Assembly: GCA_965221035.1 (NCBI GenBank)
Contig: OZ244860.1
Location: 1,184,687 to 1,248,686, forward strand
From: Candidatus Rariloculaceae bacterium
GTDB lineage: Bacteria > Pseudomonadota > Gammaproteobacteria > Steroidobacterales > Rariloculaceae
Reading direction: 5' to 3'
Length of the DNA: 64,000 bases
The position numbers and the translations under genes are program-made. Shown one piece after another: positions 3,652-48,389 of the stretch. The notes under the pieces are model-generated. The model searched no databases and was not told the DNA's origin. It worked only from the letters and a program-made list of their open reading frames with translations. The stretch's first letter is position 1. Each line of letters opens with the position of its first letter.

Positions 3652-3802
3652 GCCGCAAGGCCGGGCGAGCAAGCCCATTGCGGGCTCAAGTTCGCCCGCC
3701 ATCCCTGGCGGGCTCACATCGGGGCCCGGCGCTCCTGGCCATCCCTGGCCCCGCGCCGTGCCCACGACGCCCGCAATGGGCTTGCTCGCCCGGCCTTGCG
3801 GC
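3652..3802. repeat. Composite palindromic element, copy A (34-bp perfect arms, two-hairpin core)
   Basis: 3652-3685 is the exact reverse complement of 3769-3802 (34/34). Internal hairpins are GCCCGCCA-TCCC-TGGCGGGC (3694-3713) and GGCCA-TCCC-TGGCC (3737-3750). The core aligns with 38499-38580. Confidence 0.85.
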
Positions 3803-3842: not shown

Positions 3843-5882
<2,040 letters not shown>

Positions 5883-9497: not shown

Positions 9498-11957
9498 TCA
9501 GAAGTAGGCCTTCACTCCCGCCCAAACGGTGCGGGGCGCTCCGGGCGCCAGGAAACGTACGTCTTCGCCGATGTCGTCGAGTCCGATGATCTCGTCCGGC
9601 TCTTCGCCGATCAGGCCGAAGTTCTCGTATTCCCGGTCCAGCAGGTTCTCCACCAGCACGAACGCCTCGAATCGCTCCCCGCTGTAGTTTGCGCGAACAT
9701 TCACCGTCGCGTGGCCGTCCAGCTTGTCCAGTTCATTGGATTCGTCGCCGCGCAGGTGGCTGCCGGCGACCGCCAGAAACTCGAGCTCCGCGGACATCCG
9801 GCTCGAGAACGCACGCTCGATGGCGGCCTTGAAGATGTGATCAGGTATTCCCGGCAGGCTGGCGCCGGCACTTACGGGACGGGTGCCGAACGCGCCCCCC
9901 TCATCGTCGTCGTCGCCATTATTGTCCCCGCCGCCCGCACGCGGCTCGTCATCGTCGTCATCATCGCCCCGCAGCAGCGCGTTGGCCGGATGGTTTGGGC
10001 TCAGGACGTCGAAGTCGTCTTCAAACGTCGCACGAATGTACGTGTAGTGGGCATTCCATCGCCATCGCCCGGTTGAGCCAAGGAGCGAAGCCTCGACGCC
10101 CAGCCGCCTGGTCCTGTCGATATTCTTGAACAGTCCGTGCGCCCGGGTCTGCCCGGTCTGCCAGATGATGTCATTCTCATTGAGTGTCCGGAACAGACCC
10201 AGCGACCCGCTCCAGACGTCGGACAGTGCGCCGCGAATGCCGATCTCGAGATTTCTGGCGATGACTTCGTCCAGGGGTGGATCCGCCAGGAAGGCATTCG
10301 GCAAACGGCATTCCTCCACCTCGCCCGTAATTGGGTTGCGGCTCAATTCCTCGCTGCAGGCAAGTTCGATGGGCGTCGGCAGGCGGCTGGATTCATTGTA
10401 GGCTCCATAGAGGTCCAGCTGGTCCGACAAGCGGCGCACGGCACCCACCCCCCAGTTGAAGTTTCCGAAGTCGTGCTCGCCGTTCAGTTGCGGCTGCTCG
10501 CCGGTTCGATCGCGCAACTCGATTCGGCTGCCGTGCCAGAAGCCTGACACGGTGACAGACCAGTCCTCGCCTGGAGAAAAGCGGCTGCCCGCGTAGACGT
10601 AGTTGCGCGCAATTTCGGTGTCGATCTCGGTACGCTCATCGGCGAAACCGCCGCTCACCGAACCTGACGTGGTGGTCGAGCGCGTCGACGGATCGAACAG
10701 GGCGAATTGCACGCTGGAGTCGAAGCCGCTGCTGCCGCGATAGAAGCCCGCACCCACTGTCAGGTCGTGCTCCAGCCCGAACAGCTCCGTCACCGCGTCG
10801 ATCTCCAGGGCGCCTCCCCTGGAATCCTGCTGCCTGCCGCTGATATTGTTGATCGCGCTGCAGCCGCTCTCACCGAAAGCCTCCGTGAATTCGTCCTCGT
10901 CGATACCGCCATCGCTGAGCGACCTGTCCAGTTCGTCCTCCACCGCCTCGCGGCACGCGCCCTGCAACATCCCTGTGAGCCTGTCGATGCCGCCAAAACC
11001 GTCGTCGATGAGCTCTTCCACCTCGTCCTCGTCCAGCCCATCGCCGTTGAATGACCCGGTGTCATTGCTGCGGAAATACAGGTTGGCCGAGAGGTCAATC
11101 CGGTCGGCCAGCGCGTAATCGCCCCTCAGCGCCAGGGTCCGAGTATCGTTGCGGGTTATGTCGGGCGCGGAAAAAATCCGTTCTCGACCCACCGCCAGCA
11201 ATCCGACGGGCGACAGGCCGTTGCCCGTAAGGTCCGACCGGGCTCCGTGGTAGTCGAGGCCCAAGGCACCCCGCTCGCCGCGCCAGTCCACACTGCCGTA
11301 CAGGTTTTCCGTCCAGGACGGAGACATGTCCCGCCATCCGTTCTCCTCGAAGCGTTGCGCGTTGACGTAGTAGGCCCAGTTGCCGTTGTTGCCGCCGCTC
11401 TCGATGTTGGCGATGATCCTGCTGTGGGAACCGCCTTCGACTTCCACCGAATGCCGCGGGTGCGTGAATCCGTTCTTCATCCTCACGACCACCGAGCCGC
11501 CTAGCGTGTTCAGCCCGTACAGGGGGTTCGAACCGCCGAGAAGGCTGAGGCTCGCGATCGCGTTCATGGGCACCAGGTCCCAGTTCACGGCGTCGCCCAG
11601 CGGTTCGTTGAGCCGCACCCCGTTCTGGTAGACCGTCAGCCCGATGGGCAGACCCAGCAGCGGAGATGCGGCGTAACCCCGGAAGTAGAGGTCCGGCTGC
11701 AGAGGATTGCCCTGGGCCGAGTGAACGTGAACGCCGCCGAAGCGCCGGCTGAGGAAGCTGGAAATATCGGCGCTGCCGCTCGCCGCCAACTGTTCCGCAG
11801 TGGCGGACTGGAACGTGCCGGGAAAGTCCCGGACACTCCTTCCCTCGGCGCGCACGGGTGTCGTACCGAACACTGTGACCGTCTCGATATCCTGCGCCGG
11901 CAACGCCGCCGCGACGAGTAGCGACGGGAGCGTTGGCGCCGTTTTGAGCCACCGCAT
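9498..11957 (-). CDS. TonB-dependent outer-membrane receptor
   Basis: Signal peptide (MRWLKTAPTLPSLLVAAALPAQD), plug domain (ETVTVFG...LYFRGY...VYQNGVRLNE) and a C-terminal beta-barrel ending in the aromatic residue (GVKAYF). Start moved to the ATG at 11957. Confidence 0.85.
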   Translation of the reverse strand: MRWLKTAPTLPSLLVAAALPAQDIETVTVFGTTPVRAEGRSVRDFPGTFQSATAEQLAASGSADISSFLSRRFGGVHVHSAQGNPLQPDLYFRGYAASPLLGLPIGLTVYQNGVRLNEPLGDAVNWDLVPMNAIASLSLLGGSNPLYGLNTLGGSVVVRMKNGFTHPRHSVEVEGGSHSRIIANIESGGNNGNWAYYVNAQRFEENGWRDMSPSWTENLYGSVDWRGERGALGLDYHGARSDLTGNGLSPVGLLAVGRERIFSAPDITRNDTRTLALRGDYALADRIDLSANLYFRSNDTGSFNGDGLDEDEVEELIDDGFGGIDRLTGMLQGACREAVEDELDRSLSDGGIDEDEFTEAFGESGCSAINNISGRQQDSRGGALEIDAVTELFGLEHDLTVGAGFYRGSSGFDSSVQFALFDPSTRSTTTSGSVSGGFADERTEIDTEIARNYVYAGSRFSPGEDWSVTVSGFWHGSRIELRDRTGEQPQLNGEHDFGNFNWGVGAVRRLSDQLDLYGAYNESSRLPTPIELACSEELSRNPITGEVEECRLPNAFLADPPLDEVIARNLEIGIRGALSDVWSGSLGLFRTLNENDIIWQTGQTRAHGLFKNIDRTRRLGVEASLLGSTGRWRWNAHYTYIRATFEDDFDVLSPNHPANALLRGDDDDDDEPRAGGGDNNGDDDDEGGAFGTRPVSAGASLPGIPDHIFKAAIERAFSSRMSAELEFLAVAGSHLRGDESNELDKLDGHATVNVRANYSGERFEAFVLVENLLDREYENFGLIGEEPDEIIGLDDIGEDVRFLAPGAPRTVWAGVKAYF

Positions 11958-27323: not shown

Positions 27324-27413
27324 GGAGGGATGCCGGAGTGGTCGAACGGGCTTGACTCGAAATCAAGTGACGGGTTTACCCGTCCGTGGGTTCGAATCCC
27401 ACTCCCTCCGCCA
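27324..27413 (+). tRNA. tRNA-Ser (anticodon CGA)
   Basis: Hand-folded cloverleaf: acceptor GGAGGGA/TCCCTCC, 3-bp D stem, anticodon stem CTTGA/TCAAG with loop CTCGAAA, long variable arm GACGGG-TTT-CCCGTC (mismatch: actually GACGGG/CCCGTC pairs), T arm GTGGG-TTCGAAT-CCCAC, and an encoded CCA. Confidence 0.92.
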
Positions 27414-27510
27414 CAAAATACCGGGTCCGATATCAGCCTGGGCTGATTCCAATCACTAATCGGCCCATAAAATTGATATTTCTGGGCTGATTTGGCCTAC
27501 AATTCCCTCC

Positions 27511-28638
27511 ATGTGGGCTTGGGAACATCCAGATTGGCCGCGCTTCGTCATTGACGAAGAAGCCTTCGCGGGCCGCGCAGAGGCATTTCATCGCGCCGCC
27601 GAGCGCCTCTCCGGCAGCGTGTGGGCCATGAACGACGAGTGTCGCTCCGACACCGCGATCGAACTGATGCTTTCCGAAGCAATCGCCACGAGCGCCATCG
27701 AGGGGGAGGACCTCGACCGCGAATCGGTGCGTTCATCCCTCCTGGCGCACTTCGGCAAGGCGGTGGTCGGAACGAATGTCGACCCGAAAGCGGACGGCGC
27801 AGCGAGCCTCATCGTCGATACGAGGCGCAACTGGGACCGACCCCTGACGCACGAACTGCTGGGCTCGTGGCAAACGATGGCCGTCCCGGAAACGCTGTCC
27901 AGCGTGGCGATGCGCGGGGCGTATCGTACGGGCGAAATGCGCATCGTCAGCGGTCTGCCCGGCCGCCACCGCGTTCACTACGTCGCCCCACCGGCAATTC
28001 GAGTGCACGACGAAATGGAACGCTTTCTGGAGTGGTACAACACAGACGGCGAGAACCTGTCGGGACCGGTCCGCGCGACCGTCGCGCACATGTGGTTCGA
28101 ACGCATTCACCCCTTCGACGACGGCAATGGGCGGGTCGGCCGCGCGATCTCGGACCACGCGCTTTCCCAATCTCTCGGTCGACCGACGCTGGCCTGCCTG
28201 GCCACAGCCATCGAAGCGACCCGGAAGAAATACTACAAGGCGTTCGAGGAGTTCGACCGCAACGAAAGGCTCGACTTGAACGGTTTTGCCGAATACTTCA
28301 CCACTGCGATTGTCCGGTCTCAGGAGATCGCCATTGCGGAGGTCGCGTTCGTCCTGGACAAGAGCCGATTCTTCGATCAGCACCGCGAATCCATGAACGG
28401 GCGGCAGATCAAGGCTTTGGAACGTATGTTCATGGAAGGCAGGCGTGGATTTGAAGGTGGCATGTCCACGAAAAAGTACATGGCCATCACCAGGTGTTCC
28501 GCAACCACGGCCACCCGCGACTTGGCCGCACTGTGCGCCATGGGGGCGATGGTTTCGAGGGGTGCCGGGCGCGGCACGCGATATGAAATCTTCCATCCGC
28601 CCCCGGCGCTCGAAGGGCAACGCGGGTTTGCGCGGTAA
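27511..28638 (+). CDS. Fic-family protein (DUF4172-type N-terminus; AMPylase-type active site)
   Basis: 375 aa with the Fic motif HPFDDGNGRVGR and an intramolecular inhibitory-helix-like motif TSAIEG upstream, matching (S/T)xxxE(G/N). Confidence 0.9.
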   Translation: MWAWEHPDWPRFVIDEEAFAGRAEAFHRAAERLSGSVWAMNDECRSDTAIELMLSEAIATSAIEGEDLDRESVRSSLLAHFGKAVVGTNVDPKADGAASLIVDTRRNWDRPLTHELLGSWQTMAVPETLSSVAMRGAYRTGEMRIVSGLPGRHRVHYVAPPAIRVHDEMERFLEWYNTDGENLSGPVRATVAHMWFERIHPFDDGNGRVGRAISDHALSQSLGRPTLACLATAIEATRKKYYKAFEEFDRNERLDLNGFAEYFTTAIVRSQEIAIAEVAFVLDKSRFFDQHRESMNGRQIKALERMFMEGRRGFEGGMSTKKYMAITRCSATTATRDLAALCAMGAMVSRGAGRGTRYEIFHPPPALEGQRGFAR

Positions 28639-36557: not shown

Positions 36558-38372
36558 TCAAAGGTCGTAGAGCAGCGGCAGCACGATCGAATAGCCCGCC
36601 CACATCAGGAACATCAGCGGCAGCCCGGCGCGTACGAAGTCGGTCGCCTTGTAGCCGCCGGCGGACATCAGCAGGATATTGGTCTTGTAGCCATAGGGCG
36701 TCACGTAGCTCATGTTGGCGCCGAAAATGACCGCGAGCACGAACGGTTCCGGCGCCGACCCCAGCTCGTTCGCGATCTGGATGGCCACCGGCGCGCCGAT
36801 CACGCCGGTGGCGTTGTTGGAGATGATGTTTGTCAGTATCGCCATCACCAGCATCAGGCTGCTGAGGATCAGGGGCGTGGGCAGCCCTTCCACAAGCCGG
36901 ACCAGCACCTGGGCGAGATAGAGCGCCCCGTCCGTCTCGGTCATCGCCACCCCCAGCGCGAGGCTGGCGACGATAATCATGATGACCGTGGGGGACAGCG
37001 CGCCGGAGGCATCGCCCCAGCGCAGGCAGCGGCTCGCCAGCATGAGTCCCACGCCGGCGACCGCGGCGGCCTCGATGGACAATATGCCGCCGGCGGCCGC
37101 GAGGATGACCAGGGCCATGATCAGCATGGCCCGCGGCGCGCGATGGGTCCGCGGCAGGTCGGTGGTACCGTCGAGCACGAGCGCCGTCCCCGAGCGCTTC
37201 AGTTGCGACAACTGGGCGGCGGTGCCCTGCACCAGCAGCACGTCGCCCGAGCGCAACGAGACCGAGCCGATATCGCTGACGGATTCTTCCATCTCCAGGT
37301 CCCGCGCCCGATGCAGCGCCAGCGGCAACAGGCCGGTGCGCTGGGCGAACCGGATGCTCATCAAGCTGGAGCGGTAGAGCTTGGAGTCCCGCGTCACGAC
37401 GATCTCGGCCAGGTGCTGCGGCTCCTCGCCGACCTCGTGGGCAGTCTCTTCCTGGTGGAGCGTGGCGCGAAGCTGCGCTTCGTAGCGCTTCAGGCGCTCG
37501 GGGGTGTCGCGAACCACCAGCCGGTCGCCTTCGCGAATCGTCACCGACGGCAGCCTGGTCACCGAAAGGTCCTCGCCCCGCTCGATCCGCTCAACGCGTA
37601 TATCGTTGTCCGTCAATGCGAGGCATTCGGCAAACGACAGTCCGCAGGCGGCGCTGTCCGCGTTGATATGCAGGGCGGCATTGAAGACACGTGGCGCGGT
37701 ATCCGACATGGGCGGCTTGCGTTCCGGCAGTAGTCTGGGGGCGACCAACCAAAGGAACACCATCCCGAAACTGCCGACAATGACGGCCGGCAGCACGAAA
37801 TCGAACATGTTGAAGCGTTCGATGCCCTGGTCCGCGGCGATGGCCACCACCAGCAGGTTGGTGGACGTGCCGATCGTCGTCGCCATTCCGCCCACCAGTG
37901 TGGCAAGGCCCATGGGCATGAGGATGGCCGACGGCGCGAACTTGTTGCGTACGGCCACGCCCACGAGCATGGGCAGCAGCATCACCACGATGGGCGTGTT
38001 GTTGAGAAAGGCGCTGAGCACGCCGCTGGCCAGCAGCGTGGCCAGGCTGGCCAACAGGGGCCGCGCCATCCAGGCCCTGGCCAGGAAAGTCGCCACCGGC
38101 TGTAGCGCGCCGGTGACTTCGAGTCCCTTGCCCATGATCATCAGGGCGCAGATGGAGATCAACGCCTCGTGGCCAAACCCGAGCAGGAAAATCTCGGTGC
38201 CCAGCGTCTCGCCGTCGGCCTGATACGGGAACAACTGGAAGCTGAGCACCAGGATGACGAGTATGGCCAGGCTGGAAGCCTCCAGGGGCAGCCGATCGCG
38301 CGTGAACAGGTACAACGCCAGGGCGGTTAGCCCCAGCACGAAAATGGTGTGTCCGTCTGGTGGGGGAGGCAA
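36558..38372 (-). CDS. SLC13/DASS-family permease with two internal TrkA-C domains
   Basis: 604 aa, polytopic, with a central pair of RCK_C-like segments (IREGDRLVVRDTPERL; LRSGDVLLVQGTAAQL). Confidence 0.8.
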   Translation of the reverse strand: MPPPPDGHTIFVLGLTALALYLFTRDRLPLEASSLAILVILVLSFQLFPYQADGETLGTEIFLLGFGHEALISICALMIMGKGLEVTGALQPVATFLARAWMARPLLASLATLLASGVLSAFLNNTPIVVMLLPMLVGVAVRNKFAPSAILMPMGLATLVGGMATTIGTSTNLLVVAIAADQGIERFNMFDFVLPAVIVGSFGMVFLWLVAPRLLPERKPPMSDTAPRVFNAALHINADSAACGLSFAECLALTDNDIRVERIERGEDLSVTRLPSVTIREGDRLVVRDTPERLKRYEAQLRATLHQEETAHEVGEEPQHLAEIVVTRDSKLYRSSLMSIRFAQRTGLLPLALHRARDLEMEESVSDIGSVSLRSGDVLLVQGTAAQLSQLKRSGTALVLDGTTDLPRTHRAPRAMLIMALVILAAAGGILSIEAAAVAGVGLMLASRCLRWGDASGALSPTVIMIIVASLALGVAMTETDGALYLAQVLVRLVEGLPTPLILSSLMLVMAILTNIISNNATGVIGAPVAIQIANELGSAPEPFVLAVIFGANMSYVTPYGYKTNILLMSAGGYKATDFVRAGLPLMFLMWAGYSIVLPLLYDL

Positions 38373-38467
38373 CTTGGCGCTTCTCTTGCGGAATCCTCGA
38401 CTTGTAATAGCATGGTATTTGCTAGTCTGCCAGCCTGATTTTTGGGCATTTGCCGGATTTTGTGGGA

Positions 38468-38611
38468 GAGAGGGCGTGGGCGTACCGGGGTTGGCGGCTT
38501 AATCGAGTCCGCCATCCCTGGCGGACTCGAATCGGCGCTCGGTGCTTTCGCCATCCATGGCTGCGCGCCGAACGCACGACGCCGCCAACCCCGGTACGCC
38601 CACGCCCTCTC
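38468..38611. repeat. Composite palindromic element, copy B (31-bp perfect arms, two-hairpin core)
   Basis: 38468-38498 is the exact reverse complement of 38581-38611 (31/31). Hairpins are TCGAGTCCGCCA-TCCC-TGGCGGACTCGA (38503-38530) and GCCA-TCCA-TGGC (38550-38561). The core is homologous to 3686-3768. Confidence 0.85.
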
Positions 38612-38645
38612 GGCGCTGCCTGTGGGTGGCGAGCTCGGGCTGAGC

Positions 38646-38668
38646 TTGACACTTGAATGGCAAGTGTC
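38646..38668 (+). promoter_or_regulatory. TTGACA box overlapping an 8-bp inverted repeat upstream of the ABC exporter
   Basis: TTGACA at 38646-38651; GACACTTG (38648-38655) and CAAGTGTC (38661-38668) form the inverted repeat. No convincing -10 at 17-nt spacing. Confidence 0.3.
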
Positions 38669-38712
38669 GAGTCTTGCCTGGAACGGCGCGGTACGCCGTG
38701 GAACATCTCTCT

Positions 38713-40557
38713 ATGCTCGGGCATTCCACCAATCCCTCTGACAAGCCTGTTGCGCTACGGAGCTACCTGGGCGTGTTCCGCTACAGCCGGCGCGCGGTGG
38801 CGCTGGTCTGGTCCACGCACAAGGGGCTCACCGTGGCGCTGGCGGTACTGACAGTGACCGCGGGGGTGCTGCCGGCGGGCATCGCCTACGTGGGCAAGCT
38901 GATCGTCGACGCCGTGGTGGCCCAGATCGACGTGGCCCGGCTGGGCGGGGCGGTCGCCTACGGGGAAGTGCTGCGCTGGGTGCTGGTGGAGGGCCTGCTG
39001 GTGGCGTCCATGACCGGCGTGCAACGCGGCATCGGCTTCTCCCAGGCGTTGCTGCGGGTGCTGATCAGCCAGCGGGTCAACGTGCTGATCCTGGAAAAGG
39101 CGCTGACGATGGAGCTGGCGCAATTCGAGGACTCGGAGTTCTACGACAAGCTCAACCGCGCCCGCCAGGAGGCTTCCAGCCGCCCCCTGAGCCTGGTGAA
39201 CCGGACCTTCGGGCTGGCCCAGCACGGCATCTCCCTGGCGAGCTACGGTGGCCTGCTGGTGCAATTCTCGCCCTGGGCCGTGCTCATTCTGCTGGCCGCC
39301 GGGCTGCCCGCCTTCATCGCCGAGGCCAACTTCTCCGGCGAGCAATTCCGGATCTTCCGCTGGCGATCACCCCAGCGGCGCATGCTCATGTACCTGGAAA
39401 TGGTGCTGGCCCGGGAGGACCACGCCAAGGAAGTCAAGCTGTTCGCTCTGGGACGGGAACTGCTGGACCGCTACCGGCGCATCTTCCGCGACCTCTACAA
39501 GGAGGACCGCTCGCTGGCCATCCGCCGCGATGCCTGGGGATTCGGGCTGGGCGTGTTCGGCAACGCGGCATTTTACGGCACCTACGCCTGGATCGTGATC
39601 GCCACCGTCCAGGGCGCCATTTCGCTGGGCGACATGACAATGTACCTGCTGGTCTTCAAGCAGGGACAGGCTTCGGTGAGCTCGATGCTGACGGCGGTCG
39701 GCGGCATGTACGAGGACAACCTGTATCTCTCCAACCTGTACGAGTACCTGGAGCAGGAGTCGACACAGCGGCAGGGCACGGCGGTGGCGGGCCCTGCCCC
39801 CGATGCCGGCCTGGAGCTCACCGACGTCAGCTTCACCTATCCGGGCGCGAAGTTTCCGGCGCTGCGAAATGTAAACCTCAACATCCGCAGCGGTCAGAGC
39901 GTCGCCATCGTGGGCATGAACGGTTCCGGGAAGACGACCCTGATCAAGCTGATGGCGGGGCTGTACCCGCCCGACCGCGGCACGATCCGCTTCCAGGGAA
40001 GGGACCTGGCCGAGTGGGACCCCGCGCGCCTGAGAGCGGCGTTCGGCATCATCTTCCAGGATTTCAACCGCTACCAGCTCAAGGTCGGCGAGAACATCGG
40101 CGCGGGCGATGTCGAGCACCTGTGGGATCAGGGACGCTGGTCCGAGGCGGCTTCCAAGGGCCAGTCGGCCGGCTTCATCGAACGGATGGAGGACGGCTAC
40201 CACACCCAGCTCGGCCGCTGGTTCAACGATGGCCAGGAACTGTCCGGCGGCGAGTGGCAGCGCATCGCGCTGTCGCGGGCATTCATGCGAAGCGGCGCCG
40301 ACGTACTGGTGCTCGACGAGCCCACGGCGGCCATGGACGCCCAATCCGAAGCGGAGATTTTCGACCACTTCCAGTCGATGACCGCCGGCAAGATCGCGGT
40401 GCTGATCTCGCACCGCTTCTCGACCGTGCGCCGGGCGGAACAGATCGTGGTCATGGACGAGGGCAAGGTGGTGGAGACCGGCAGCCACGAGGAGCTGGTT
40501 GTGCGGAACGGCGTGTATGCGCGGCTGTTCGAGTTGCAGGCGCGTGGGTATCGGTAG
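38713..40557 (+). CDS. ABC transporter, fused permease/ATP-binding protein (exporter type)
   Basis: N-terminal six-TM-type domain; C-terminal NBD with Walker A GMNGSGKTT, signature LSGGEWQRIALSRA and Walker B VLVLDEPT. Start at the ATG at 38713. Confidence 0.88.
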   Translation: MLGHSTNPSDKPVALRSYLGVFRYSRRAVALVWSTHKGLTVALAVLTVTAGVLPAGIAYVGKLIVDAVVAQIDVARLGGAVAYGEVLRWVLVEGLLVASMTGVQRGIGFSQALLRVLISQRVNVLILEKALTMELAQFEDSEFYDKLNRARQEASSRPLSLVNRTFGLAQHGISLASYGGLLVQFSPWAVLILLAAGLPAFIAEANFSGEQFRIFRWRSPQRRMLMYLEMVLAREDHAKEVKLFALGRELLDRYRRIFRDLYKEDRSLAIRRDAWGFGLGVFGNAAFYGTYAWIVIATVQGAISLGDMTMYLLVFKQGQASVSSMLTAVGGMYEDNLYLSNLYEYLEQESTQRQGTAVAGPAPDAGLELTDVSFTYPGAKFPALRNVNLNIRSGQSVAIVGMNGSGKTTLIKLMAGLYPPDRGTIRFQGRDLAEWDPARLRAAFGIIFQDFNRYQLKVGENIGAGDVEHLWDQGRWSEAASKGQSAGFIERMEDGYHTQLGRWFNDGQELSGGEWQRIALSRAFMRSGADVLVLDEPTAAMDAQSEAEIFDHFQSMTAGKIAVLISHRFSTVRRAEQIVVMDEGKVVETGSHEELVVRNGVYARLFELQARGYR

Positions 40558-40571
40558 GGGGTTCTGGCACC

Positions 40572-40653
40572 TATTGGAAGTGCCCTATTGGACCCCTATT
40601 GGACCCCTACTTGGACCCCCTATTGGACCCCTATTGGACCCCTATTGGACCCC
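40572..40653. repeat. Seven-unit tandem array with 11-bp period (TATTGGACCCC)
   Basis: Five exact 11-nt units, one 13-nt variant (TACTTGGACCCCC) and one degenerate first unit (TATTGGAAGTGCCC). Lies between the convergent stops of the ABC exporter and the AlbA_2 gene. Confidence 0.9.
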
Positions 40654-40662
40654 ATCAAATCA

Positions 40663-42156
40663 TCAGCCGCCGGACTGAACATCAATCGGTATCCATCGCG
40701 CCGCCAACCCACGTCCTTCAGTCCGAACGAGTTGGCGATCACGAAGATTTGAAAGAGCGCGCTTGACCTGCCGCGGACTGGCCGAGGCACCAAGCGCGGA
40801 TCGAATCTCGCGAAGCGCCATTGGCCCACCCCCACTGACCAGCAGATCGAGCACGGCGTTCTGAACCGCTGACAAGCCGCTGTCGTTAGCATCGTTGACA
40901 GCCGAAAACCGGGAAGGACTTGTCGGTGCGTGACCGCCTTGTGATCCTTGATGGCGGGTGGAGGATACGCGAAGCTGGCTTATCGGCACGCGGAACCTGA
41001 ACCGGACGGTCACGCAGCCACCAGCATCCTCGATCTCCGGTCGCGGCAACCCGGCGCCCAACGCCTCGGATTCCATCTTGAGGGTACCCCGGCCCCATTC
41101 CTCAATGATGCCGCGCAAATAAAACACATGGGCGATTCTCGGGTTCCATGGGCGAGAATCATGCGGTGCGAACAATTGATCCGGAGTCAGCCCGAAATGC
41201 AGGTTTCCGGATGAGCTGATTTCCACCCGGTCGTCATAGACTGCAACTCCGACCGACCCCCCGCCAATTGCGTAGTCGCGGTGACAAAACGCATTCGCCA
41301 ACGCCTCGCGCGTTGCGAGCGGCGGAACCAGCGGTTCATCAATCCGCTCGAGGCGATCCGGTTCGATCCTGCCAGGAATCGGCAGCGTCCCGCGCAGAAA
41401 CCGTTCCGCCGTTCGAAGCAGCGCAAACGCATTTCCGAAGAACTGGCGGTTGTCGACAAACTCCATTCGATCGGTGCCGACAAAGCGGGCCACCCGCAGC
41501 CAGCATTGCGGGAAATCGAATTCAAGGCGCTCCGATTGGCCAAATAGCACGGCGCCCGCCCGCATCAACTGGCCATCACGGATCAACCTGAGACCACGCA
41601 GCAAATCCTCAAGGCTGTTTGTCCCGGGATCGTCCAACCTCCCGCGACGAACCGCTTCCTGAACTGTCCGCCGAATCTCCGCCGCGTCCAGATCCGCGAC
41701 CGACCAGCCTGACACAGGCAGATTCTCCCAACGCTGGTCACCATGAAGCCGCTCGATCAGCAACCGATTGTATTCGTCGACCGGCATCATCGGTGAGGTG
41801 TTACCCACCCGCCGGTAGGCCCTTCCCCGGTATTGGTAAGGTTTTTCGGTACCTTCGTTCACGGCGATGGAGACGATCTCGCGCCGAGAATCGAGCGCGA
41901 CCCGGTTGATCGTTGGCGACGCGGCGGGCTCGATCCGTCGAACTTCGCCCGAAATACGTTCGATCGTACCGTCGCTCACCTCCTGCCCCACCGCCTTGCA
42001 GTCGGGCGTGACCCCGAACAATACCTGCCCGCCACGATGGTTGAGCATGGCGCAGACGGTCTTGGCCGCTTCCACTCTCATGCCGGAGGTTCGCTTGAAT
42101 TCCAGCGTCTCGGATTCACCTTCGGCGACCAGATTGCGGATGTTCTCGATGTTCAT
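40663..42156 (-). CDS. COG2865-type putative DNA-binding protein (AlbA_2/Schlafen-like N-terminus, HATPase_c_4-like core, C-terminal wHTH)
   Basis: 497 aa. N-terminus ESETLEFKRT...AMLNHRGGQVLFGV; central REALANAFCHRDY...GRG; C-terminal wHTH-like LREIRSALGASASPRQVKRALSNLRDRQLV. Its start overlaps the Type ISP stop (ATGA). Confidence 0.75.
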   Translation of the reverse strand: MNIENIRNLVAEGESETLEFKRTSGMRVEAAKTVCAMLNHRGGQVLFGVTPDCKAVGQEVSDGTIERISGEVRRIEPAASPTINRVALDSRREIVSIAVNEGTEKPYQYRGRAYRRVGNTSPMMPVDEYNRLLIERLHGDQRWENLPVSGWSVADLDAAEIRRTVQEAVRRGRLDDPGTNSLEDLLRGLRLIRDGQLMRAGAVLFGQSERLEFDFPQCWLRVARFVGTDRMEFVDNRQFFGNAFALLRTAERFLRGTLPIPGRIEPDRLERIDEPLVPPLATREALANAFCHRDYAIGGGSVGVAVYDDRVEISSSGNLHFGLTPDQLFAPHDSRPWNPRIAHVFYLRGIIEEWGRGTLKMESEALGAGLPRPEIEDAGGCVTVRFRFRVPISQLRVSSTRHQGSQGGHAPTSPSRFSAVNDANDSGLSAVQNAVLDLLVSGGGPMALREIRSALGASASPRQVKRALSNLRDRQLVRTEGRGLAARWIPIDVQSGG

Positions 42157-45100
42157 GAGTTGGTTTCTGGATGGTCCAGCTCAGAATCCTCGAAGGGATT
42201 GGGAAGACCTTTGACGATTTTCACTGTCTCGACACTGACGTGCACGATGCGACGAAACGAAGCGATCAGGTCACGTGGGTTTTCGAACCAGCCGTTCGGA
42301 TCATTGACGATGCCGCTGCGGCTGTCCGTCACGATACGGTAACGATCGATAAACCATTCAATTGGCGTGCGGCCGTTAACACTGTAATCGTGGGCTTCGG
42401 CTGGAATATTCTCAAGCCGGATAAGGTCGTTGATGGCCAGTACGGAACGTTCGCCGTCGACAAAACGCATCTTCTTCTTGCCAATCCTGTAATGCTCGTC
42501 TCGCTGTTCACCGTCGCCGGTGTACGTCACCTGAAGCGGATACTCCGGCCCACTTTCGTACCCGAGATGCAGTGCCGCCAGCTCTTGTCCGGCCGCTGCA
42601 AAAGCGCGGAAGTCCGTTGCGAACGGAATGCGTGGCAATTCCTTGGTGAGGTCGTTGGCAAAGCGCTCGCGATAACCAGGTGCGTGCAGCATGCCGTAGA
42701 CATAGTCGAAGATCGCGTCCCTGGTGATCGCGCGATCCCCGTATCGCACACGGTAGGTCTTGAGAGCCGCTTCAGAGACATTGTCGATGCGCTCCATGCC
42801 GGCGACATCATCGAGCAGATCCCTTTGCCCCCGACGAACATAGCGGTATCGCGGGAAACACTGGCCGTTGAACATCAGTTGGATGTCCGGCATCGTATCG
42901 ACGACAAGCACGGAAAATGGCTTCGTTGAACCGACTCCCGACACACAGATTGCGCGGTTTTCGGCATTGGGCGAGGGGAAAATGCTGTCTTGCTGGTACT
43001 TGTTGTTTACTAAGGTGTAATCGACGTAACAGTGCTGCTTAACGAATGGTCGGTACTGAGTATTCCAGATATTGCCCCGGGAATAGTTGACGCTCCTCCC
43101 TCGCCGAAGGTTGTTCTTGAGTTCCCGGTCCCAACGAACGTGCGAGGAAAACCTGTTTACGGCATCGTCGACTGTTTGCTCGGGATGCTGTTCGCGCACC
43201 GCCAGCGCGCCAAGAAAGTCATCCACCATCCTGCGCGCGTTTTCTGCGCAGTCTTCGCGCGTAAAGTTGTAGATGTAGGCGTCGCGGCTAGTGGCCAATC
43301 CCCTTGAGTACAGCTTGAATATCGTCCCATCGGCGCTCCCCGCCTTTGCCGCCTTGGATCCCAGCGGATAGAACGCCTGGAACGCCTCGTCGCGCTGGCC
43401 GACCCAGTCGTGGTGCCGGTCTGGAGTAATTTCCTCCCAGTCTTCGATGCCTGCGATCGATTGCCACTCGCGCACCTTGGCTAGTTTGTCCTCGCGGGAC
43501 AGATAATCACCGATGTCCCGATACAGAATTCGGCAGCCCTCATGTGCGGCGTCCGGGTTTTTCGCGAGGATCGTGATTGCAACCGGCGCGCGGGAGCCTT
43601 GGTCGAAAACGTTATCGCCTTCCGAACGGCGACGTTCACCCGATGTTCGGGCGTTGCCTCGAAGATTAACGATGTGGACTGAGCTGAATTCTTCCGCCAG
43701 ACAGGCTCGTACACCAGTATCGACGTTGCCGTCGATCCAGGAGCCGTTGGTCACAAGCGCTAGAATGCCACGCTCACCAATCCGGTCCGACGCCCAGCGA
43801 ATGGCCATCTTGTAGGTGTCGTAGAGGCTGTTCTTGAGCGTCGCCTTCGACCGGGTGGCGTACGTCTCGGCAACACGTTGCTCAATCTCAGGATATTTAA
43901 CGTTGGGGTTGCTGTCCGCTGAACTTCTTTGACCCACTGACCACGGCGGATTCCCGACAATCACCTGGATCGGCGTGTTCTGCTGCCTTTCAACCCGCTC
44001 GCTGTTATCCGGTAGCCATTCTTTCGGGAACCCGGCCGTCCTTTCCGTATGCAAGTTGAATGTGTCGGTCAGTACGATGCCCTCGAACGGCTCGTAGCTG
44101 CTATCGGCGCCACGCCGACCATGAAATGCCTCCTCGATATGGATTGCCGCAATGTAGTAGGCCAACAGCACTATCTCGTTGGCGTGCAATTCTCTACGAT
44201 ACTTCCTAACCAAATCTCCATCGGAGATAAGCGCGGACTGGATCAACCGCACGAGAAATATGCCGGTGCCTGTGAACGGATCGAGCACATGCACGCCCGC
44301 GTCGCTGAGGCCACGTCCGAACTCCGACCGCAACGCATAATTGGCACTCGCCAGGACGAAGTCGACGACCTCTACGGGCGTGTAGACGATGCCGAGCCGG
44401 TCCGCCTCCTTCTTGAGCGCCTTGGCGAAGAACTTTTCGTACAATTCCATCAGAACCCGTTGCCGCGCTTGGCTGTTGTCCAAGCCCCGGGCGCGCATCC
44501 GCACACTCTCGTAGAACGACTCAAGATCCTGTGTTTCGCCCTCCAGCCCGAATTCCCCAAAGTCGTTTCGAAGCGCATCCAGCGCCTGAGCAACAGGGTT
44601 GCTGCCAGCGAAGTCGTAGTGCTCGAACAACGCTTCGAAAACGGGCCGGGTAAGGATGTGTTGGGCCATCATTTCGATGGCGTTGTCGGTCGATACCGAG
44701 TCGTTGATGGATATGCGCAATTCCTGATGGAAAGCGTCGAACCACTCGTGCAACGCACCGTTGGCTGGGTTGGCCAGCAGGTTTTCGATGCGGCCCGTAA
44801 CGCGCAGGAAGATATCAGCGACATCCTTCGCCCAAGTCTCCCAGTACTTGCGGTCGCCGCACCTCTCAACGATCTTGGCGTAGATCGCGCCGGGCGGAAG
44901 TTCGAGCGGCGGAAACGGCAGGACGCTGGATATCGTAAGGCCGGATTCCTCGTCGCCGTCCCGCCAAGTGGCGCCGTCACCACTGAAAATAATTCTCTGC
45001 GTTGGCGTCTGATTCAGATCAATCTGGTTGATCTCTGCGTCGAACCGTTCGTCGTGGGAGCGTAGTGCTTGCAGCACGTCCCAGACAGGTGCGAACCGAT

Positions 45101-46946
45101 CATTGTTGTCAAGCGCCAAGACCGGGTCCGTTCCCGCTGGCACGGTCACCGGCAGGATAATGTAACCATACTCCTTGCCCGGCGACTTGCGCATGGCGCG
45201 ACCCACCGCTTGAACGATGTCGACTTGCGAACTGCGCGAATTCATAAACAACACCGCGTCCAGCGCCGGAACATCGATACCTTCCGACAGGCAGCGGGCG
45301 TTTGTGAGGATACGACACAGGCCGGACGAATCGCCCTTCAACCAGTCGATTCGCTTTTTGCGGTCCAGGGCGTGGTGTTGGCCATCGACATGTTGCACTT
45401 CGCAACGTAACGCCCCCGGCCTATCGCTCTCCGGCAGCAGGCCGACGGCATCCTCAACGATGCTGGGCCAGTGCATTTCCAATCGCTTGGAAGACAGGAT
45501 CGTATTCGTGAACGCGATGGCCCGTTTTAGGCGGCGTCCCGAGCCGTGTTCGGGTGCGGTCCCGGATCGCCTAACGGCGTGGCCCTCCGGATCCTGAAGC
45601 GCCTCCCAGCAACCGACGATTTTCGCGCGATCACTAAGGGTGATCTCCTTTCCGTCCCGGGCCAAACCCGACTGCATTGCCTTGTCGACACGATCCTCGG
45701 AGAGCGCGAAAATCACCACCTTGTAATCGGCCAGCAGATCGTTGCCGACTGCCCGCGAGAATGCCAGGCGATGAAACTCGGGGCCATAGATGGCTTTGTC
45801 GTCCATCGAGAACACTTCCACATCGTGACGGGACGCCCTGGACCTGGCAGCCTGCGTATACAGCTTGGGCGTGGCCGTCATGTACAAGCGGCGCTGCGCC
45901 CGAATTCTTTGTCCGTCGTGCACCAGTACGAACGGCGAAGTCTTGTCGCCGGGCCTGTCAATGCCTGTGGTCCGGTGCGCCTCGTCGCAGAGAATGAGGT
46001 CGAAGCCAGGAGCACCATCATTCTGCGCCTCTTCCACTATGCCAAGCGAATGATACGTGCTAAACGCCACTGTCATCGCATCCGAGCGGGCAACGCGAAG
46101 CGCCTTTGAAACGGACACCGAGTCGGTGGTGACGGGGATCTCCAGTTCTTCGATGGGTGCGTCTTCGTCGTTGCGACCAGCTCTCGTGTCGGAGCAGATT
46201 CCGATGTAGGCATGCGGGACTTCGCGCTGCTCCGCCCACTCCCGCATCGATTGCTGCAACAGAGAAATCGACGGAACCAGATAGAGAACACTTCCGCCGA
46301 CGCCCACCATGGACTCGGCGATGCGCAAGGCAGTGAAAGTCTTGCCCGTCCCGCAGGCCATTACAAGCTTGCCTCTATCAGACTCCTCGAACTTGGCCTT
46401 GACGTCTTCGAAAGCCGCCAGCTGGTGGGGCCGCAAGCTGTACGGCTCATGACGCAAAGACAACGCCTCAGGCTCGTTGTGCACGAGATCGGGCCAATCG
46501 ACGGGACGGCTTGCCAGATCGCCGAAACGAAGCACTTGGCACTCCGGTTTCAACCCGGTAATCGTCTTGCGGGCATTCGGACCCCACTCGTCGCCGGTGT
46601 CCACGAACAGGCGCCGGGTGAACGGGTCGCGGGCGGAGGCCGCGATGAAGTTTCGCAGGTGCGACATTTGCAGGCGAGTGCCCGGTTGGTAACACTTGCA
46701 CTGGATCGCGCAGTATCCGCCATCGCTTTCTTCAGCGACGAGATCGATGCCGGTGTCGGTCCCGCTGAATTCGGGTTGGCGCAGCGCCCAGTCGCGCCAC
46801 AGCCAAACCTGCCGGAATCGATCCTGATAGAGGGGGTCCTTCTGCAAATACGCCTTCATCAGGCGTTCGAAGAGGCGACCCTTTTCGACCTCCGTGCTGG
46901 CGATAGACCGGATATGATCCAGAACGGCTTGGAAGCCGTCGCTCAT
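42153..46946 (-). CDS. Type ISP restriction-modification enzyme (Mrr-like nuclease, SF2 helicase-like motor, N6-adenine methyltransferase and target-recognition domain in one chain)
   Basis: 1597 aa. N-terminal PD-(D/E)xK-like GIDLVAE...AIQCKCY; helicase motifs ACGTGKT and LILCDEAHRTTG; methyltransferase motifs VLDPFTGTGIF and VGNPPW; C-terminal YGMLHAPGYRERFANDLTKELPRIPF block typical of Type ISP enzymes. Confidence 0.85.
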   Translation of the reverse strand: MSDGFQAVLDHIRSIASTEVEKGRLFERLMKAYLQKDPLYQDRFRQVWLWRDWALRQPEFSGTDTGIDLVAEESDGGYCAIQCKCYQPGTRLQMSHLRNFIAASARDPFTRRLFVDTGDEWGPNARKTITGLKPECQVLRFGDLASRPVDWPDLVHNEPEALSLRHEPYSLRPHQLAAFEDVKAKFEESDRGKLVMACGTGKTFTALRIAESMVGVGGSVLYLVPSISLLQQSMREWAEQREVPHAYIGICSDTRAGRNDEDAPIEELEIPVTTDSVSVSKALRVARSDAMTVAFSTYHSLGIVEEAQNDGAPGFDLILCDEAHRTTGIDRPGDKTSPFVLVHDGQRIRAQRRLYMTATPKLYTQAARSRASRHDVEVFSMDDKAIYGPEFHRLAFSRAVGNDLLADYKVVIFALSEDRVDKAMQSGLARDGKEITLSDRAKIVGCWEALQDPEGHAVRRSGTAPEHGSGRRLKRAIAFTNTILSSKRLEMHWPSIVEDAVGLLPESDRPGALRCEVQHVDGQHHALDRKKRIDWLKGDSSGLCRILTNARCLSEGIDVPALDAVLFMNSRSSQVDIVQAVGRAMRKSPGKEYGYIILPVTVPAGTDPVLALDNNDRFAPVWDVLQALRSHDERFDAEINQIDLNQTPTQRIIFSGDGATWRDGDEESGLTISSVLPFPPLELPPGAIYAKIVERCGDRKYWETWAKDVADIFLRVTGRIENLLANPANGALHEWFDAFHQELRISINDSVSTDNAIEMMAQHILTRPVFEALFEHYDFAGSNPVAQALDALRNDFGEFGLEGETQDLESFYESVRMRARGLDNSQARQRVLMELYEKFFAKALKKEADRLGIVYTPVEVVDFVLASANYALRSEFGRGLSDAGVHVLDPFTGTGIFLVRLIQSALISDGDLVRKYRRELHANEIVLLAYYIAAIHIEEAFHGRRGADSSYEPFEGIVLTDTFNLHTERTAGFPKEWLPDNSERVERQQNTPIQVIVGNPPWSVGQRSSADSNPNVKYPEIEQRVAETYATRSKATLKNSLYDTYKMAIRWASDRIGERGILALVTNGSWIDGNVDTGVRACLAEEFSSVHIVNLRGNARTSGERRRSEGDNVFDQGSRAPVAITILAKNPDAAHEGCRILYRDIGDYLSREDKLAKVREWQSIAGIEDWEEITPDRHHDWVGQRDEAFQAFYPLGSKAAKAGSADGTIFKLYSRGLATSRDAYIYNFTREDCAENARRMVDDFLGALAVREQHPEQTVDDAVNRFSSHVRWDRELKNNLRRGRSVNYSRGNIWNTQYRPFVKQHCYVDYTLVNNKYQQDSIFPSPNAENRAICVSGVGSTKPFSVLVVDTMPDIQLMFNGQCFPRYRYVRRGQRDLLDDVAGMERIDNVSEAALKTYRVRYGDRAITRDAIFDYVYGMLHAPGYRERFANDLTKELPRIPFATDFRAFAAAGQELAALHLGYESGPEYPLQVTYTGDGEQRDEHYRIGKKKMRFVDGERSVLAINDLIRLENIPAEAHDYSVNGRTPIEWFIDRYRIVTDSRSGIVNDPNGWFENPRDLIASFRRIVHVSVETVKIVKGLPNPFEDSELDHPETNS

Positions 46947-47007
46947 CGTCCCGCGCTTCTCGTTGAAGTCATGCCCAGTTTACCTGTGCGACCGTTTACT
47001 GCCGCTC

Positions 47008-47036
47008 TGCATACAGCACGCTGGCGAGCGTTGCAA
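47008..47036 (-). promoter_or_regulatory. Candidate sigma70 promoter of the Type ISP gene
   Basis: On the - strand: TTGCAA (47031-47036), 17-nt spacer, TATGCA (47008-47013), about 60 nt upstream of the ATG. Confidence 0.35.
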
Positions 47037-47095
47037 CCGACAAGGCCCCGCGCGGGCACGTTCCTGACTCAACGCTTGTCACCGGGCTCGGCGGA

Positions 47096-48241
47096 TTACA
47101 CTGGCGTTATCGGTTCCAGGGTTGAAATCTCCGCAACCGGCAACACAGTAACACTGGCGTCCAGCGAGTAACGCTCCGGCCCCGGATAGACGATCCACAA
47201 GTGCCGCAGCGGCAGGTCGCGCATCACCGCGCGGATGCCTCGCGTCATCCTGGGCGCGTCCTGGTACTTGAATTCCATTCCCCACAAGGTGCCGCGCGCC
47301 TGCCACACGAGGTCGAGTTCCGCGCCGGAATGGGTGCCCCAGAAATGCGGATGATTGATGCCGTGCAGGCGAATGGCCTGTTCAAGTGCGAAGCCTTCCC
47401 AAGAGGCGCCGAGCTTGGGGTGGGATTCCAGTTCGGCGGGCGTTGCGATGGTGTGCAGGGCGTGGAACAGGCCACTGTCCCGGATGTAGAGCTTGGGTGC
47501 CTTCACCAAGCGCTTGCCCACGTTCGCGTGCCACGGAGGAACGAGACGGATCATGAACGTGCCCGTCAAGATCTCCAGATAGCGGCGTATGGTGTGATCC
47601 GACACGCCGAAAGACCGGCTCAGCTCCGAGAAATTCAGCGTCTGGCCGTGGTAGTGGCTGACCATCAGCCAGAACCGTCGTAGCGTTTCGGCGGCGATGG
47701 TGATCCCGAGGCCGGGTATGTCGCGTTCCAGGTGGCTGCGGATGAAGTCTTCCCGCCACAGAAACGAAGCCGTTTCATCCTCGGCAAGGTAGCTTCGCGG
47801 GAACCCGCCCCGCAACCACAGGTTTCGCCAAGCGCCCGCACCTGCCTCGTCCAGCGAAAACGCGCCGAGGTCATGGTAGGCGACTCGACCGGCAAGACTC
47901 TCGGAAACGTCCCTGACCAGATCGGGTGAGGCGCTGCCGAGCAACAGGAAGCGGGTATCGACCTGCCGGTCGGCCAATACGCGGAGCAAGGGAAACAGTT
48001 CGGGCATGCGCTGCACTTCGTCGATGACCACAGTACCCGTCAGGTGTTCCAGGGCGGTTTGCGGTTCCTCCAGTCGGGCAACGCTCCGGGGATCTTCAAG
48101 GTCGAAGTAATGCTCGGCGCCCAGTGAACGGGCCAAGGTGGTCTTGCCGCATTGCCTGGGACCCGCCAATACGGTGATGGGCGCACGGCGGAGGTTGGCC
48201 TTGATGGCCGCAAGCTCGCGGGGACGAGGCAGGTTACTCAT
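47096..48241 (-). CDS. AAA+ ATPase with DUF4143 C-terminal domain (COG1373 type)
   Basis: 381 aa with Walker A GPRQCGKTT and Walker B VVIDEVQ. The C-terminal AELDLV...MEFKY resembles a PD-(D/E)xK-like core. Confidence 0.8.
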   Translation of the reverse strand: MSNLPRPRELAAIKANLRRAPITVLAGPRQCGKTTLARSLGAEHYFDLEDPRSVARLEEPQTALEHLTGTVVIDEVQRMPELFPLLRVLADRQVDTRFLLLGSASPDLVRDVSESLAGRVAYHDLGAFSLDEAGAGAWRNLWLRGGFPRSYLAEDETASFLWREDFIRSHLERDIPGLGITIAAETLRRFWLMVSHYHGQTLNFSELSRSFGVSDHTIRRYLEILTGTFMIRLVPPWHANVGKRLVKAPKLYIRDSGLFHALHTIATPAELESHPKLGASWEGFALEQAIRLHGINHPHFWGTHSGAELDLVWQARGTLWGMEFKYQDAPRMTRGIRAVMRDLPLRHLWIVYPGPERYSLDASVTVLPVAEISTLEPITPV

Positions 48242-48257
48242 TATCTCAACATAGCAC

Positions 48258-48304
48258 GCATAACACGAAAATTCGAAGTTCAGGTACGAATTTTCGTGTT
48301 ATGC
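48258..48304. promoter_or_regulatory. 18-bp perfect inverted repeat immediately upstream of the AAA/DUF4143 gene
   Basis: GCATAACACGAAAATTCG (48258-48275), an 11-nt loop, then CGAATTTTCGTGTTATGC (48287-48304). AT-rich, starting 17 nt from the start codon. Confidence 0.6.
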
Positions 48305-48389
48305 GGCCAAAATCAACGGTGGACTGTTCAACCCACTGATGACACCATGCGGAGCCGGGTCGCCCTCACGAGGCCACGGAGCGATTTTG

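Follow-up and report, generated by a model that had tools for sequence, protein, structure and literature searches.

A family of ~145-bp palindromic repeats with a three-way-junction fold in Candidatus Rariloculaceae and other uncultured Gammaproteobacteria

Among the short repeats of bacterial genomes, miniature inverted-repeat transposable elements (MITEs) such as Correia/NEMIS, ERIC/IRU, RUP and Nezha are ~150 bp long, bounded by inverted repeats, able to form a long hairpin and dispersed in intergenic regions, often at the 3' ends of genes. REPINs are hairpin-forming mobile repeats linked to RAYT transposases, in which compensatory changes are common (PMC3116915). The element described here, copy B, occupies positions 38468-38611 of a 64-kb window (the whole 64,000-nucleotide stretch of contig OZ244860.1 from a Candidatus Rariloculaceae bacterium that was analysed), and a second member of the same family, copy A, lies in the same window at 3652-3802. 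Copy B is probably a non-autonomous, REPIN/MITE-like palindromic DNA element of a distinct, lineage-restricted family that acts as a DNA hairpin. REPINs are the nearest known kind, although it lacks defining features of REP/RAYT systems, of MITEs with terminal inverted repeats (TIRs) and of integron attC sites. The parts of copy B and the position of copy A are as follows.

38468-38498, no strand assigned: left arm, the 5' half of helix P1; 31 nt, GAGAGGGCGTGGGCGTACCGGGGTTGGCGGC, homologous to the arms of other family members
38499-38502, plus strand: junction J1/2, TTAA, unpaired in the DNA and the RNA folds and falling in conserved alignment columns
38503-38530, plus strand: hairpin 1 (P2), a 12-bp stem with loop TCCC; stem halves 38503-38514 and 38519-38530, 12/12 paired
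38532-38579, plus strand: extended hairpin 2 (P3), with base TCG/CGA, internal loops and the tip GCCA-TCCA-TGGC at 38550-38561
38581-38611, no strand assigned: right arm, the 3' half of P1; 31 nt, reverse complementary to 38468-38498 at every position; the conserved CACGAC junction comes before it
3652-3802, plus strand: copy A, with arms 3652-3685 and 3769-3802 (34/34 paired) and an 83-nt core (3686-3768), between parE and parC

The arms of copy B, which an earlier note on this DNA had described as reverse complementary throughout, do pair at 31/31 positions around an 82-nt core, and hairpin 1 has the lengths given there, 12 bp without a mismatch in copy B (TCGAGTCCGCCA-TCCC-TGGCGGACTCGA) versus 8 bp in copy A (GCCCGCCA-TCCC-TGGCGGGC). 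Copies A and B are the sole perfect inverted repeats of at least 25 nt within 400 nt in the whole window, and the 144-nt strand of copy B folded as DNA reaches -76.1 kcal/mol, compared with -32.4 +/- 2.9 for shuffled sequences (z = -15; 0 of 200 shuffles equal); the palindrome is therefore far beyond chance. ARAGORN found no tRNA-like gene at the element, and a promoter and terminator scan of copy B gave no sigma-70-like promoter, no intrinsic terminator and no T-tract after the stem.

Further copies were sought with a loose two-hairpin pattern in one genome per species and, as a second step, with a family-specific pattern in metagenomes, the latter scan yielding five further copies. With a covariance model built from 13 full copies, 18 full copies were recognized at E <= 1e-13 in addition to truncated ones, both window copies being included (copy A with 136.6 bits). 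The elements are ~135-157 bp long (typically ~145 nt) and reside in the window, in metagenome-assembled genomes (MAGs) of Candidatus Rariloculaceae, in other uncultured Gammaproteobacteria and in ENA assemblies; the nearest protein homologues of the window genes carry the names Candidatus Rariloculaceae and Gammaproteobacteria. The loose pattern returned mostly other repeats with a GCCATCCCTGGC hairpin, plus true relatives each with its own long arms, and the other GCCATCCCTGGC-hairpin families were rejected as members, being differently built and not matched by the covariance model. In 678 kb of unrelated genomes with the same hairpin motif nothing convincing was found (two weak sub-family-level scores of 40 and 35 bits; one Myxococcales locus), the family pattern was absent from viral contigs, and plasmid and phage records gave no BLAST match to the element. 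Rfam at its gathering score reported only a tRNA-Ser in the whole window and no family at either copy, and in E-value mode the two copies matched generic miRNA-precursor models of long hairpins, with RsmW far below threshold. A Twister-sister match, seen in copy A only (27.4 bits, threshold 34), was dismissed because the conserved structure does not fit. A full-text literature search for the motif found no paper. The ~145-bp repeat family is real, lineage-restricted and previously undescribed.

Since the 18 full copies lie in many gene contexts, the proposal of a dispersed element, as opposed to a gene-specific regulator, is upheld. The outcomes that the earlier note had set against it, namely that no further copies would be found and pairing would be lost at orthologous loci, or that the two copies would prove a recent segmental duplication, were looked for: copies were found and pairing at orthologous loci is preserved. 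A recent segmental duplication with secondary arm replacement shares with the data the common core and nothing more, and this reading, like that of a chance palindrome, has next to no probability: the copy A core aligns with that of copy B at only ~75% identity, which excludes a recent duplication, the arms are ~52% identical while each copy is perfectly self-paired, 16 further full copies with homologous arms occur elsewhere, and the fold z-score stands at -15.

One fold is common to all copies, a three-way junction formed by the P1 arms, hairpin 1 and the extended hairpin 2. The order of its parts is P1 (25-36 bp), a 4-nt T-n-A-A stretch (the J1/2 consensus, which follows the invariant GC pair closing P1), P2, one unpaired A, P3 and CACGAC. 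Across the family P2 is a 9-13-bp stem with loop TCCC, its tip GCCA-TCCC-TGGC being nearly invariant, and the P3 tip reads GCCA-TCCN-TGGC, in which the fourth loop base is the sole freely variable tip position. The weaker hairpin 2 that had been described for copy B (GCCA-TCCA-TGGC) is present, as the tip of the longer imperfect helix P3, at the base of which the family-invariant TCG (38532-38534) pairs with CGA (38577-38579). The idea of two independent hairpins inside a palindrome is thereby replaced by that of a conserved three-way junction with invariant junction nucleotides. The two small hairpins are directly oriented on one and the same strand, the outer arms alone being inverted. Invariant positions cluster in the two hairpin tips, the junctions (CccAcGaC-GC is conserved in the 18 copies) and the GC pair closing P1, and the arms and lower P2 are conserved mainly as pairs, not as sequence. 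In the 13-copy alignment 97.2% of cells are standard pairs, versus 35-43% when the partners are slid by 1-3 columns, and 35 of the 53 pairs and 116 cells are changed on both sides, values reached by 0 of 500 shuffles. Changes on both sides affect 25 of the 31 P1 pairs and 7 of the 11 modelled hairpin 1 pairs, the latter confirming the compensatory changes already suspected there, and the P3 base-pair helices are 100% paired, invariant or covarying.

The arms are homologous across the family (consensus GCGAGGGTGTGCGCGGACAGCCCTTnnnnGC) and have diverged with mirrored changes. Because of this homology the whole ~145 nt is a single unit and not a core between arbitrary palindromes. The earlier description of the copies as having the same core and different arms thus stands for the core, which is common; the arms are not unrelated, being diverged homologues. 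They contain an alternating purine-pyrimidine tract (GTGTGCGCGG) with an invariant G at alternate columns, and the 4-5 bp beside the closing GC pair are hypervariable. The arm of copy B is clearly related to those of L070, L127a and L073 (copies are designated by locus), and that of copy A to those of L122 and L133. Private, unrelated arms made at insertion were rejected on account of the family-wide arm consensus, as was a core inserted into a pre-existing arm-only palindrome, no arm-only hairpins being present in the window or the loci.

Comparison of the arms of copy B with those of L127a shows substitutions at 6 of 29 positions and a 2-nt difference in length; every one of these changes has its counterpart in the other arm, with 0 one-sided. 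At fourfold-degenerate sites of the flanking genes, which are near saturation, this comparison gives differences of 0.34-0.38, a level at which independent neutral change would be expected to leave ~13 one-sided changes and 1 matched change. In the comparison of L127 with L070, where the full elements are 92% identical, a single mirrored difference separates the paired arms over 29 positions. These two loci also carry an orphan remnant.

L127 ~9598-9661 and L070 ~3230-3275, upstream of the full element: orphan remnant consisting of the left arm and the 5' half of hairpin 1; orthologous pair

This partnerless remnant, adjacent to the full copy, differs at 7 of 28 positions between L127 and L070, a divergence of 25% versus 8% for the full copies, or about three times as much. 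The mirrored changes and the faster orphan remnant indicate that the paired arms evolve jointly and more slowly than a nearby unpaired copy. Imperfect inverted repeats are corrected through replication template switching (PMC7202029, PMC6357072), and the near-perfect arms may arise from such copy-correction within the element (template switching on the partner arm, as at quasipalindromes) together with selection. The arm-matching data fit copy-correction and selection alike without separating the two; we favour template-switch copying of the partner arm and selection against mismatched copies acting together.

The P1 cells of the 18 copies comprise 528 Watson-Crick pairs, 4 G:T, 11 A:C and 10 others, the last mostly positions past the ends of shorter arms. 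About 95% of the arm pairs are Watson-Crick, and because G:T wobble is no commoner than plain mismatches, which is atypical for a selected RNA helix, the pairing would be relevant in DNA, presumably as a single-stranded DNA (ssDNA) hairpin at the replication fork or as a cruciform, and not in RNA. The same composition bears on an RNA-level element, an alternative that we consider unlikely, in which the opposite strand would form a long duplex stem with two GGA tetraloop hairpins (GCCA-NGGA-UGGC, CANGGAUG) ~39 nt apart. These would make a two-site module for a CsrA/RsmA dimer, and dispersed copies could titrate CsrA or bring adjacent mRNAs under CsrA. On the reverse strand of copy B the hairpin 1 tip is CAGGGAUG and the second tip CAUGGAUG; both agree with the Rsm/CsrA motif CANGGANG in each of its six specified positions, and, as in Csr/Rsm small RNAs, CANGGAUG tips with GGA in the loop occur twice per element on one strand (PMC6849547). 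Within the loop only the N of ANGGA varies, the RNA fold of the GGA strand leaves both tips as loops, and the same hairpin recurs in other gammaproteobacterial repeat families, though this match to the motif was noticed post hoc and the cousin families lack a Csr/Rsm match. RsmW matches the GGA strand of both window copies weakly, at 19.8 and 11.8 bits, which falls far short of its gathering score of 52.

The mismatches of the arms also bear on RNA pairing. On the written strand A:C exceeds G:T (11 vs 4), A:C being equivalent to G:U on the GGA strand, and one C:A mismatch of fixed polarity recurs in four copies (L118, L120, L122 and L123), where the opposite strand has a G:U/G:T wobble. The better conservation of the full copy relative to the neighbouring orphan fragment is a further point in favour of the RNA reading; against it, hardly any G:U is found in the arms as a whole. 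Unlike Csr/Rsm small RNAs, the element is below Rfam gathering, lacks a recognized promoter or terminator, shows random orientation with respect to flanking transcription, with intact copies in both orientations at one locus, and places its hairpins inside a ~30-bp perfect stem. RNase III cleaves long perfect RNA duplexes such as 31 bp, so the copy B stem would be a substrate. No csrA was found by tblastn in 1.16 Mb, a search that is uninformative for whole genomes.

Every copy is intergenic and no strand bias is apparent. At 6 of ~14 loci the element lies between convergent gene ends, nearly filling the gap, with 11-76 nt to each stop codon; about six copies are placed between co-directional genes (3 sense, 2 antisense and 1 unclear), and two loci are divergent. 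The GGA strand is the sense strand in copy A and L127b, and the other strand in L051, L123 and L133. Two inverted copies ~210 nt apart, one with a degenerate hairpin 1, are found between divergent genes of a Chromatiales MAG (L066, 5031-5171 on the plus and 5379-5524 on the minus strand). Copy A is flanked by genes assigned by Pfam as parE and parC. Copy B, as had been stated, lies between a permease, now assigned as CitMHS/TrkA_C (36558-38372, minus), and an ABC exporter (38713-40557, plus), whose exact-protein lookup returned no recorded entry. The open reading frame (ORF) at 38442-38741, already suspected to be an artefact, is one: it crosses a non-coding palindromic repeat whose copies take either orientation and lie in unrelated contexts, it overlaps, in a different frame, the start of the ABC exporter, and the orthologous arms differ by 2 nt per arm.

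Orthologous loci were retrieved via homologues of the ABC exporter and ParC. In the permease/ABC spacer the element is present in the window and in L127 in the same orientation, L070 has a 92%-identical copy beside the permease gene, and in L128-130 the element is inverted and has very different arms, still paired at 30/30 positions. The distance from the element to a TTGACAC box is 34 nt in the window, 36 nt in L127 and 32 nt in the inverted element of L128, and these near-equal distances indicate the same insertion point in the three. The corresponding spacer of L131/L132 is 199 nt long and has no element. Likewise, the parE-parC spacer, which holds copy A in the window, is empty in L134 (76 nt) and L135 (72 nt), and in L133 it contains a truncated copy consisting of P3 and one arm, with the core facing the opposite way; the inner part of this arm is nearest to copy A (11 of 14 positions, compared with 9 or fewer for any other copy). 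An additional copy in L127 separates the ABC exporter from PEPcase. In L020 (6850-7210) a half element, the core and right arm, meets an AT-rich block whose start coincides exactly with the inner 6 bp of the left arm, so that foreign DNA may have been inserted into the arm; an autonomous element of the order arm, gene, core and arm was rejected here, as the left arm is cut by the AT-rich block and no second arm occurs within 7 kb. These loci document gain and loss, decay, and in-situ inversion or re-insertion of the element, and from its presence and absence we infer transposition.

The same loci bear on the possibility that the element is a host cis-acting DNA or transcript-structure element kept for a local effect and spreading rarely or not today, an improbable reading in our judgement. 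It could be a bidirectional transcription barrier, a stabiliser of mRNA 3' ends or a site for nucleoid or topology proteins, as proposed for REP and bacterial interspersed mosaic elements (BIMEs). Its position between convergent gene ends at 6 of ~14 loci, 11-76 nt from the stops, and that of copy A inside the parE-parC pair would suit such roles, as would the conserved purine-pyrimidine tract of the arms and the persistence of same-locus copies, despite fourfold divergence of 0.34-0.38, in better condition than the adjacent orphan fragment. Yet the orthologous spacers of L131/L132 and L134/L135 work without the element, copies that are truncated or orphaned decay, the element is found in contexts as different as divergent promoters, operon-internal sites and convergent ends, the terminator scan was empty with no T-tract after the stem, and a generic barrier role leaves the invariant tips and junction unexplained. 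Effects on neighbouring genes, such as a block to read-through between convergent genes, protection of mRNA 3' ends or spacing of divergent promoters, are probably by-products.

As a palindromic DNA element of the REPIN/MITE kind, copy B resembles REPINs in being short (~100-150 nt), intergenic or extragenic, multi-copy, lineage-restricted and persistent at orthologous sites, and in having a long ssDNA hairpin, compensatory changes, decayed singlets or remnants and no target-site duplication. It differs in that GTAG, the defining tetranucleotide of the REP palindrome (PMC8266576), is absent from all 16 elements, one of which has CTAC, in that its two small hairpins share one strand instead of forming an inverted REP doublet, and in that the most conserved parts are central (tips and junction) and not terminal, the arms being 25-36 bp long and essentially perfect. 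The sole match to RayT was found in a Nevskia MAG (L047, 7340-7848, 43% identical to E. coli RayT), where a classical inverted REP pair with GTAG/CTAC (GTAGGCTGGGTTGCAGCGCAGCGGAAACCCAGC), and not the present hairpin, lies before the gene; this one RAYT belongs to a classical GTAG REP system and was rejected as a partner. MITEs share with the element a length of ~150 bp, inverted repeats as bounds, the long hairpin and the intergenic position, but no consistent target-site duplication is seen here, and the arms differ by 13-50% between copies while remaining self-complementary, so that they do not represent a fixed transposase-binding TIR. No parent insertion sequence (IS) was seen, the one with a DDE transposase in L133 having unrelated terminal repeats. 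Integron attC sites were rejected, as the R'' core site RYYYAAC occurs, confined to the J1/2 junction, in 4 of 16 copies and the R' core site GTTRRRY in 0 of 16, and the neighbours are housekeeping genes.

Two similar subterminal same-strand hairpins and the lack of target duplication are also found in palindrome-associated transposable elements (PATEs) of the IS200/IS605 group, and in the IS608 model Y1 HUH transposases recognise such hairpins on ssDNA (PMC8266576). The ends of these elements are without long terminal inverted repeats, whereas the present element is bounded by long inverted arms; TnpA was not detected, no conserved flanking target tetranucleotide is visible at the element ends, and the 4-5 bp next to the core are the most variable positions. 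If copy B is a mobile DNA hairpin, the invariant tips and junction may be what a structure-specific DNA enzyme recognises, one acting in trans from a gene elsewhere in the genome; this is the least certain step of the proposal. An HUH/Y1-type ssDNA transposase would be the most plausible candidate, and would move or maintain the element.

The inverted terminal repeat (ITR) of adeno-associated virus (AAV) is ~145 nt long and consists of a long stem closing two small internal palindromes (a T- or Y-shaped three-way junction) that occur in 'flip' and 'flop' orientations. The likeness, in analogy only, lies in the T/Y shape and in an internal part found in two orientations; the element differs in being interstitial in bacterial chromosomes and not at a replicon terminus, with no Rep gene and no sequence similarity. 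By this analogy it is conceivable, though a long shot, that the element is a chromosomal three-way-junction hairpin processed in the manner of parvoviral ITRs by a nicking or structure-specific enzyme, with self-templated synthesis (fold-back or hairpin transfer) regenerating one arm from the other. If true, this would account for arms that stay essentially perfect in Watson-Crick pairing while their sequence drifts near-neutrally, for the 'flip/flop' of the core in situ at orthologous loci, and for half-elements that retain the core with a single arm.

Several observations weigh against a mobile REPIN/MITE-like element. The arms of copies from one assembly are 71-87% identical, which speaks against recent transposition bursts; across 16 copies no consistent direct repeat borders the element (chance matches do not exceed 2-4 nt, and their sequences vary); and filled and empty sites give no clean junction, the flanks being too diverged or rearranged, so that loss alone could account for some empty sites. 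With E. coli RayT as query, tblastn detected no RAYT/Y1 partner in the window or across ~330 kb of DNA from the lineage, within a total of 1.16 Mb that does not amount to whole genomes. The better upkeep of the full copy relative to the orphan remnant hints at a host-level function over pure selfishness, and the recurrent C:A mismatch is not what efficient copy-correction would leave, neither simple model explaining it. Finally, strict orthology of copy B and L127a is uncertain, as the L127 orphan remnant resembles copy B at some arm positions.

Two conserved sites flank copy B in its spacer. At 38645-38671, just upstream of the ABC exporter, TTGACAC and a palindrome (CTTGACACTTG/CAAGTGTCGAG) are found in all orthologous loci, with or without the element, and are probably the -35 box and operator of the exporter. 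On the other side, the box TAATAGCA(T/C)GGTAT at 38405-38420, upstream of the permease, is kept in all orthologous spacers and is a candidate promoter or regulatory site of that gene. Downstream of the exporter, the region up to PEPcase (40560-48340), two genes that are adjacent in relatives, is a low-GC block (0.57-0.62) that looks like an inserted defence island, with the following genes.

40663-42156, minus strand: Schlafen/AlbA_2 and HATPase_c_4 protein
42153-46946, minus strand: Type ISP restriction-modification enzyme, 1597 aa
47096-48241, minus strand: AAA_14/DUF4143 ATPase

In L127 this spacer has a copy of the palindromic element in place of the island. An 11-nt tandem repeat (CCCTATTGGAC, 6.3 copies) at 40583-40653 and a perfect 19-bp inverted repeat (CGCATAACACGAAAATTCG, with an 11-nt loop) at 48257-48305 lie at the two island edges and may be boundary or att-like features. 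In L133 (1-7775) a BREX-like cluster (BrxC/PglY, methyltransferase, PglZ and Schlafen/AlbA_2) precedes parE-parC and a DDE_Tnp_1 IS follows; defence islands seem to recur around these housekeeping loci. Elsewhere in the window (27324-28638), tRNA-Ser(CGA) is directly followed by a DUF4172/Fic-domain gene (27511-28638, plus).

Two kinds of cousin repeats were encountered. Tandem arrays of ~50-60-nt units with a CCGCCATCCCTGGCGG hairpin occur in L013, L017, L036, L065 and others (Methylobacter, Sedimenticola and other Gammaproteobacteria) and have no Rfam match; each unit of L036, inspected by eye on its reverse strand, contains a further hairpin with GGA. The second family, typified by L104 (6976-7710, five tandem 135-nt units) and seen also in L012, L028, L029, L038, L057, L094 and others (Pseudohongiella, Nevskia, Luteimonas and Microbulbifer), consists of two GCCA-TCCN-TGGC hairpins, CGTTCGG, a copy-specific perfect hairpin and CTCACCC, and has no Rfam family.

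The family is a structurally distinct addition to the few persistent intergenic repeats of bacteria (REP/REPIN, ERIC and Correia), in a lineage known from metagenomes only. It provides an unusually clean natural experiment on the upkeep of palindromes, since the same genomes offer for comparison arms with and without a partner as well as orthologous sites that are filled, empty or inverted. In practical terms, perfect stems of 25-36 bp affect assembly, ORF calling (as with the spurious frame at 38442-38741) and the annotation of promoters and terminators. If the reading of its tips as GGA hairpins were true, the element would be a mobile carrier of CsrA sites, and the partner enzyme, if found, would define a new element-enzyme system.

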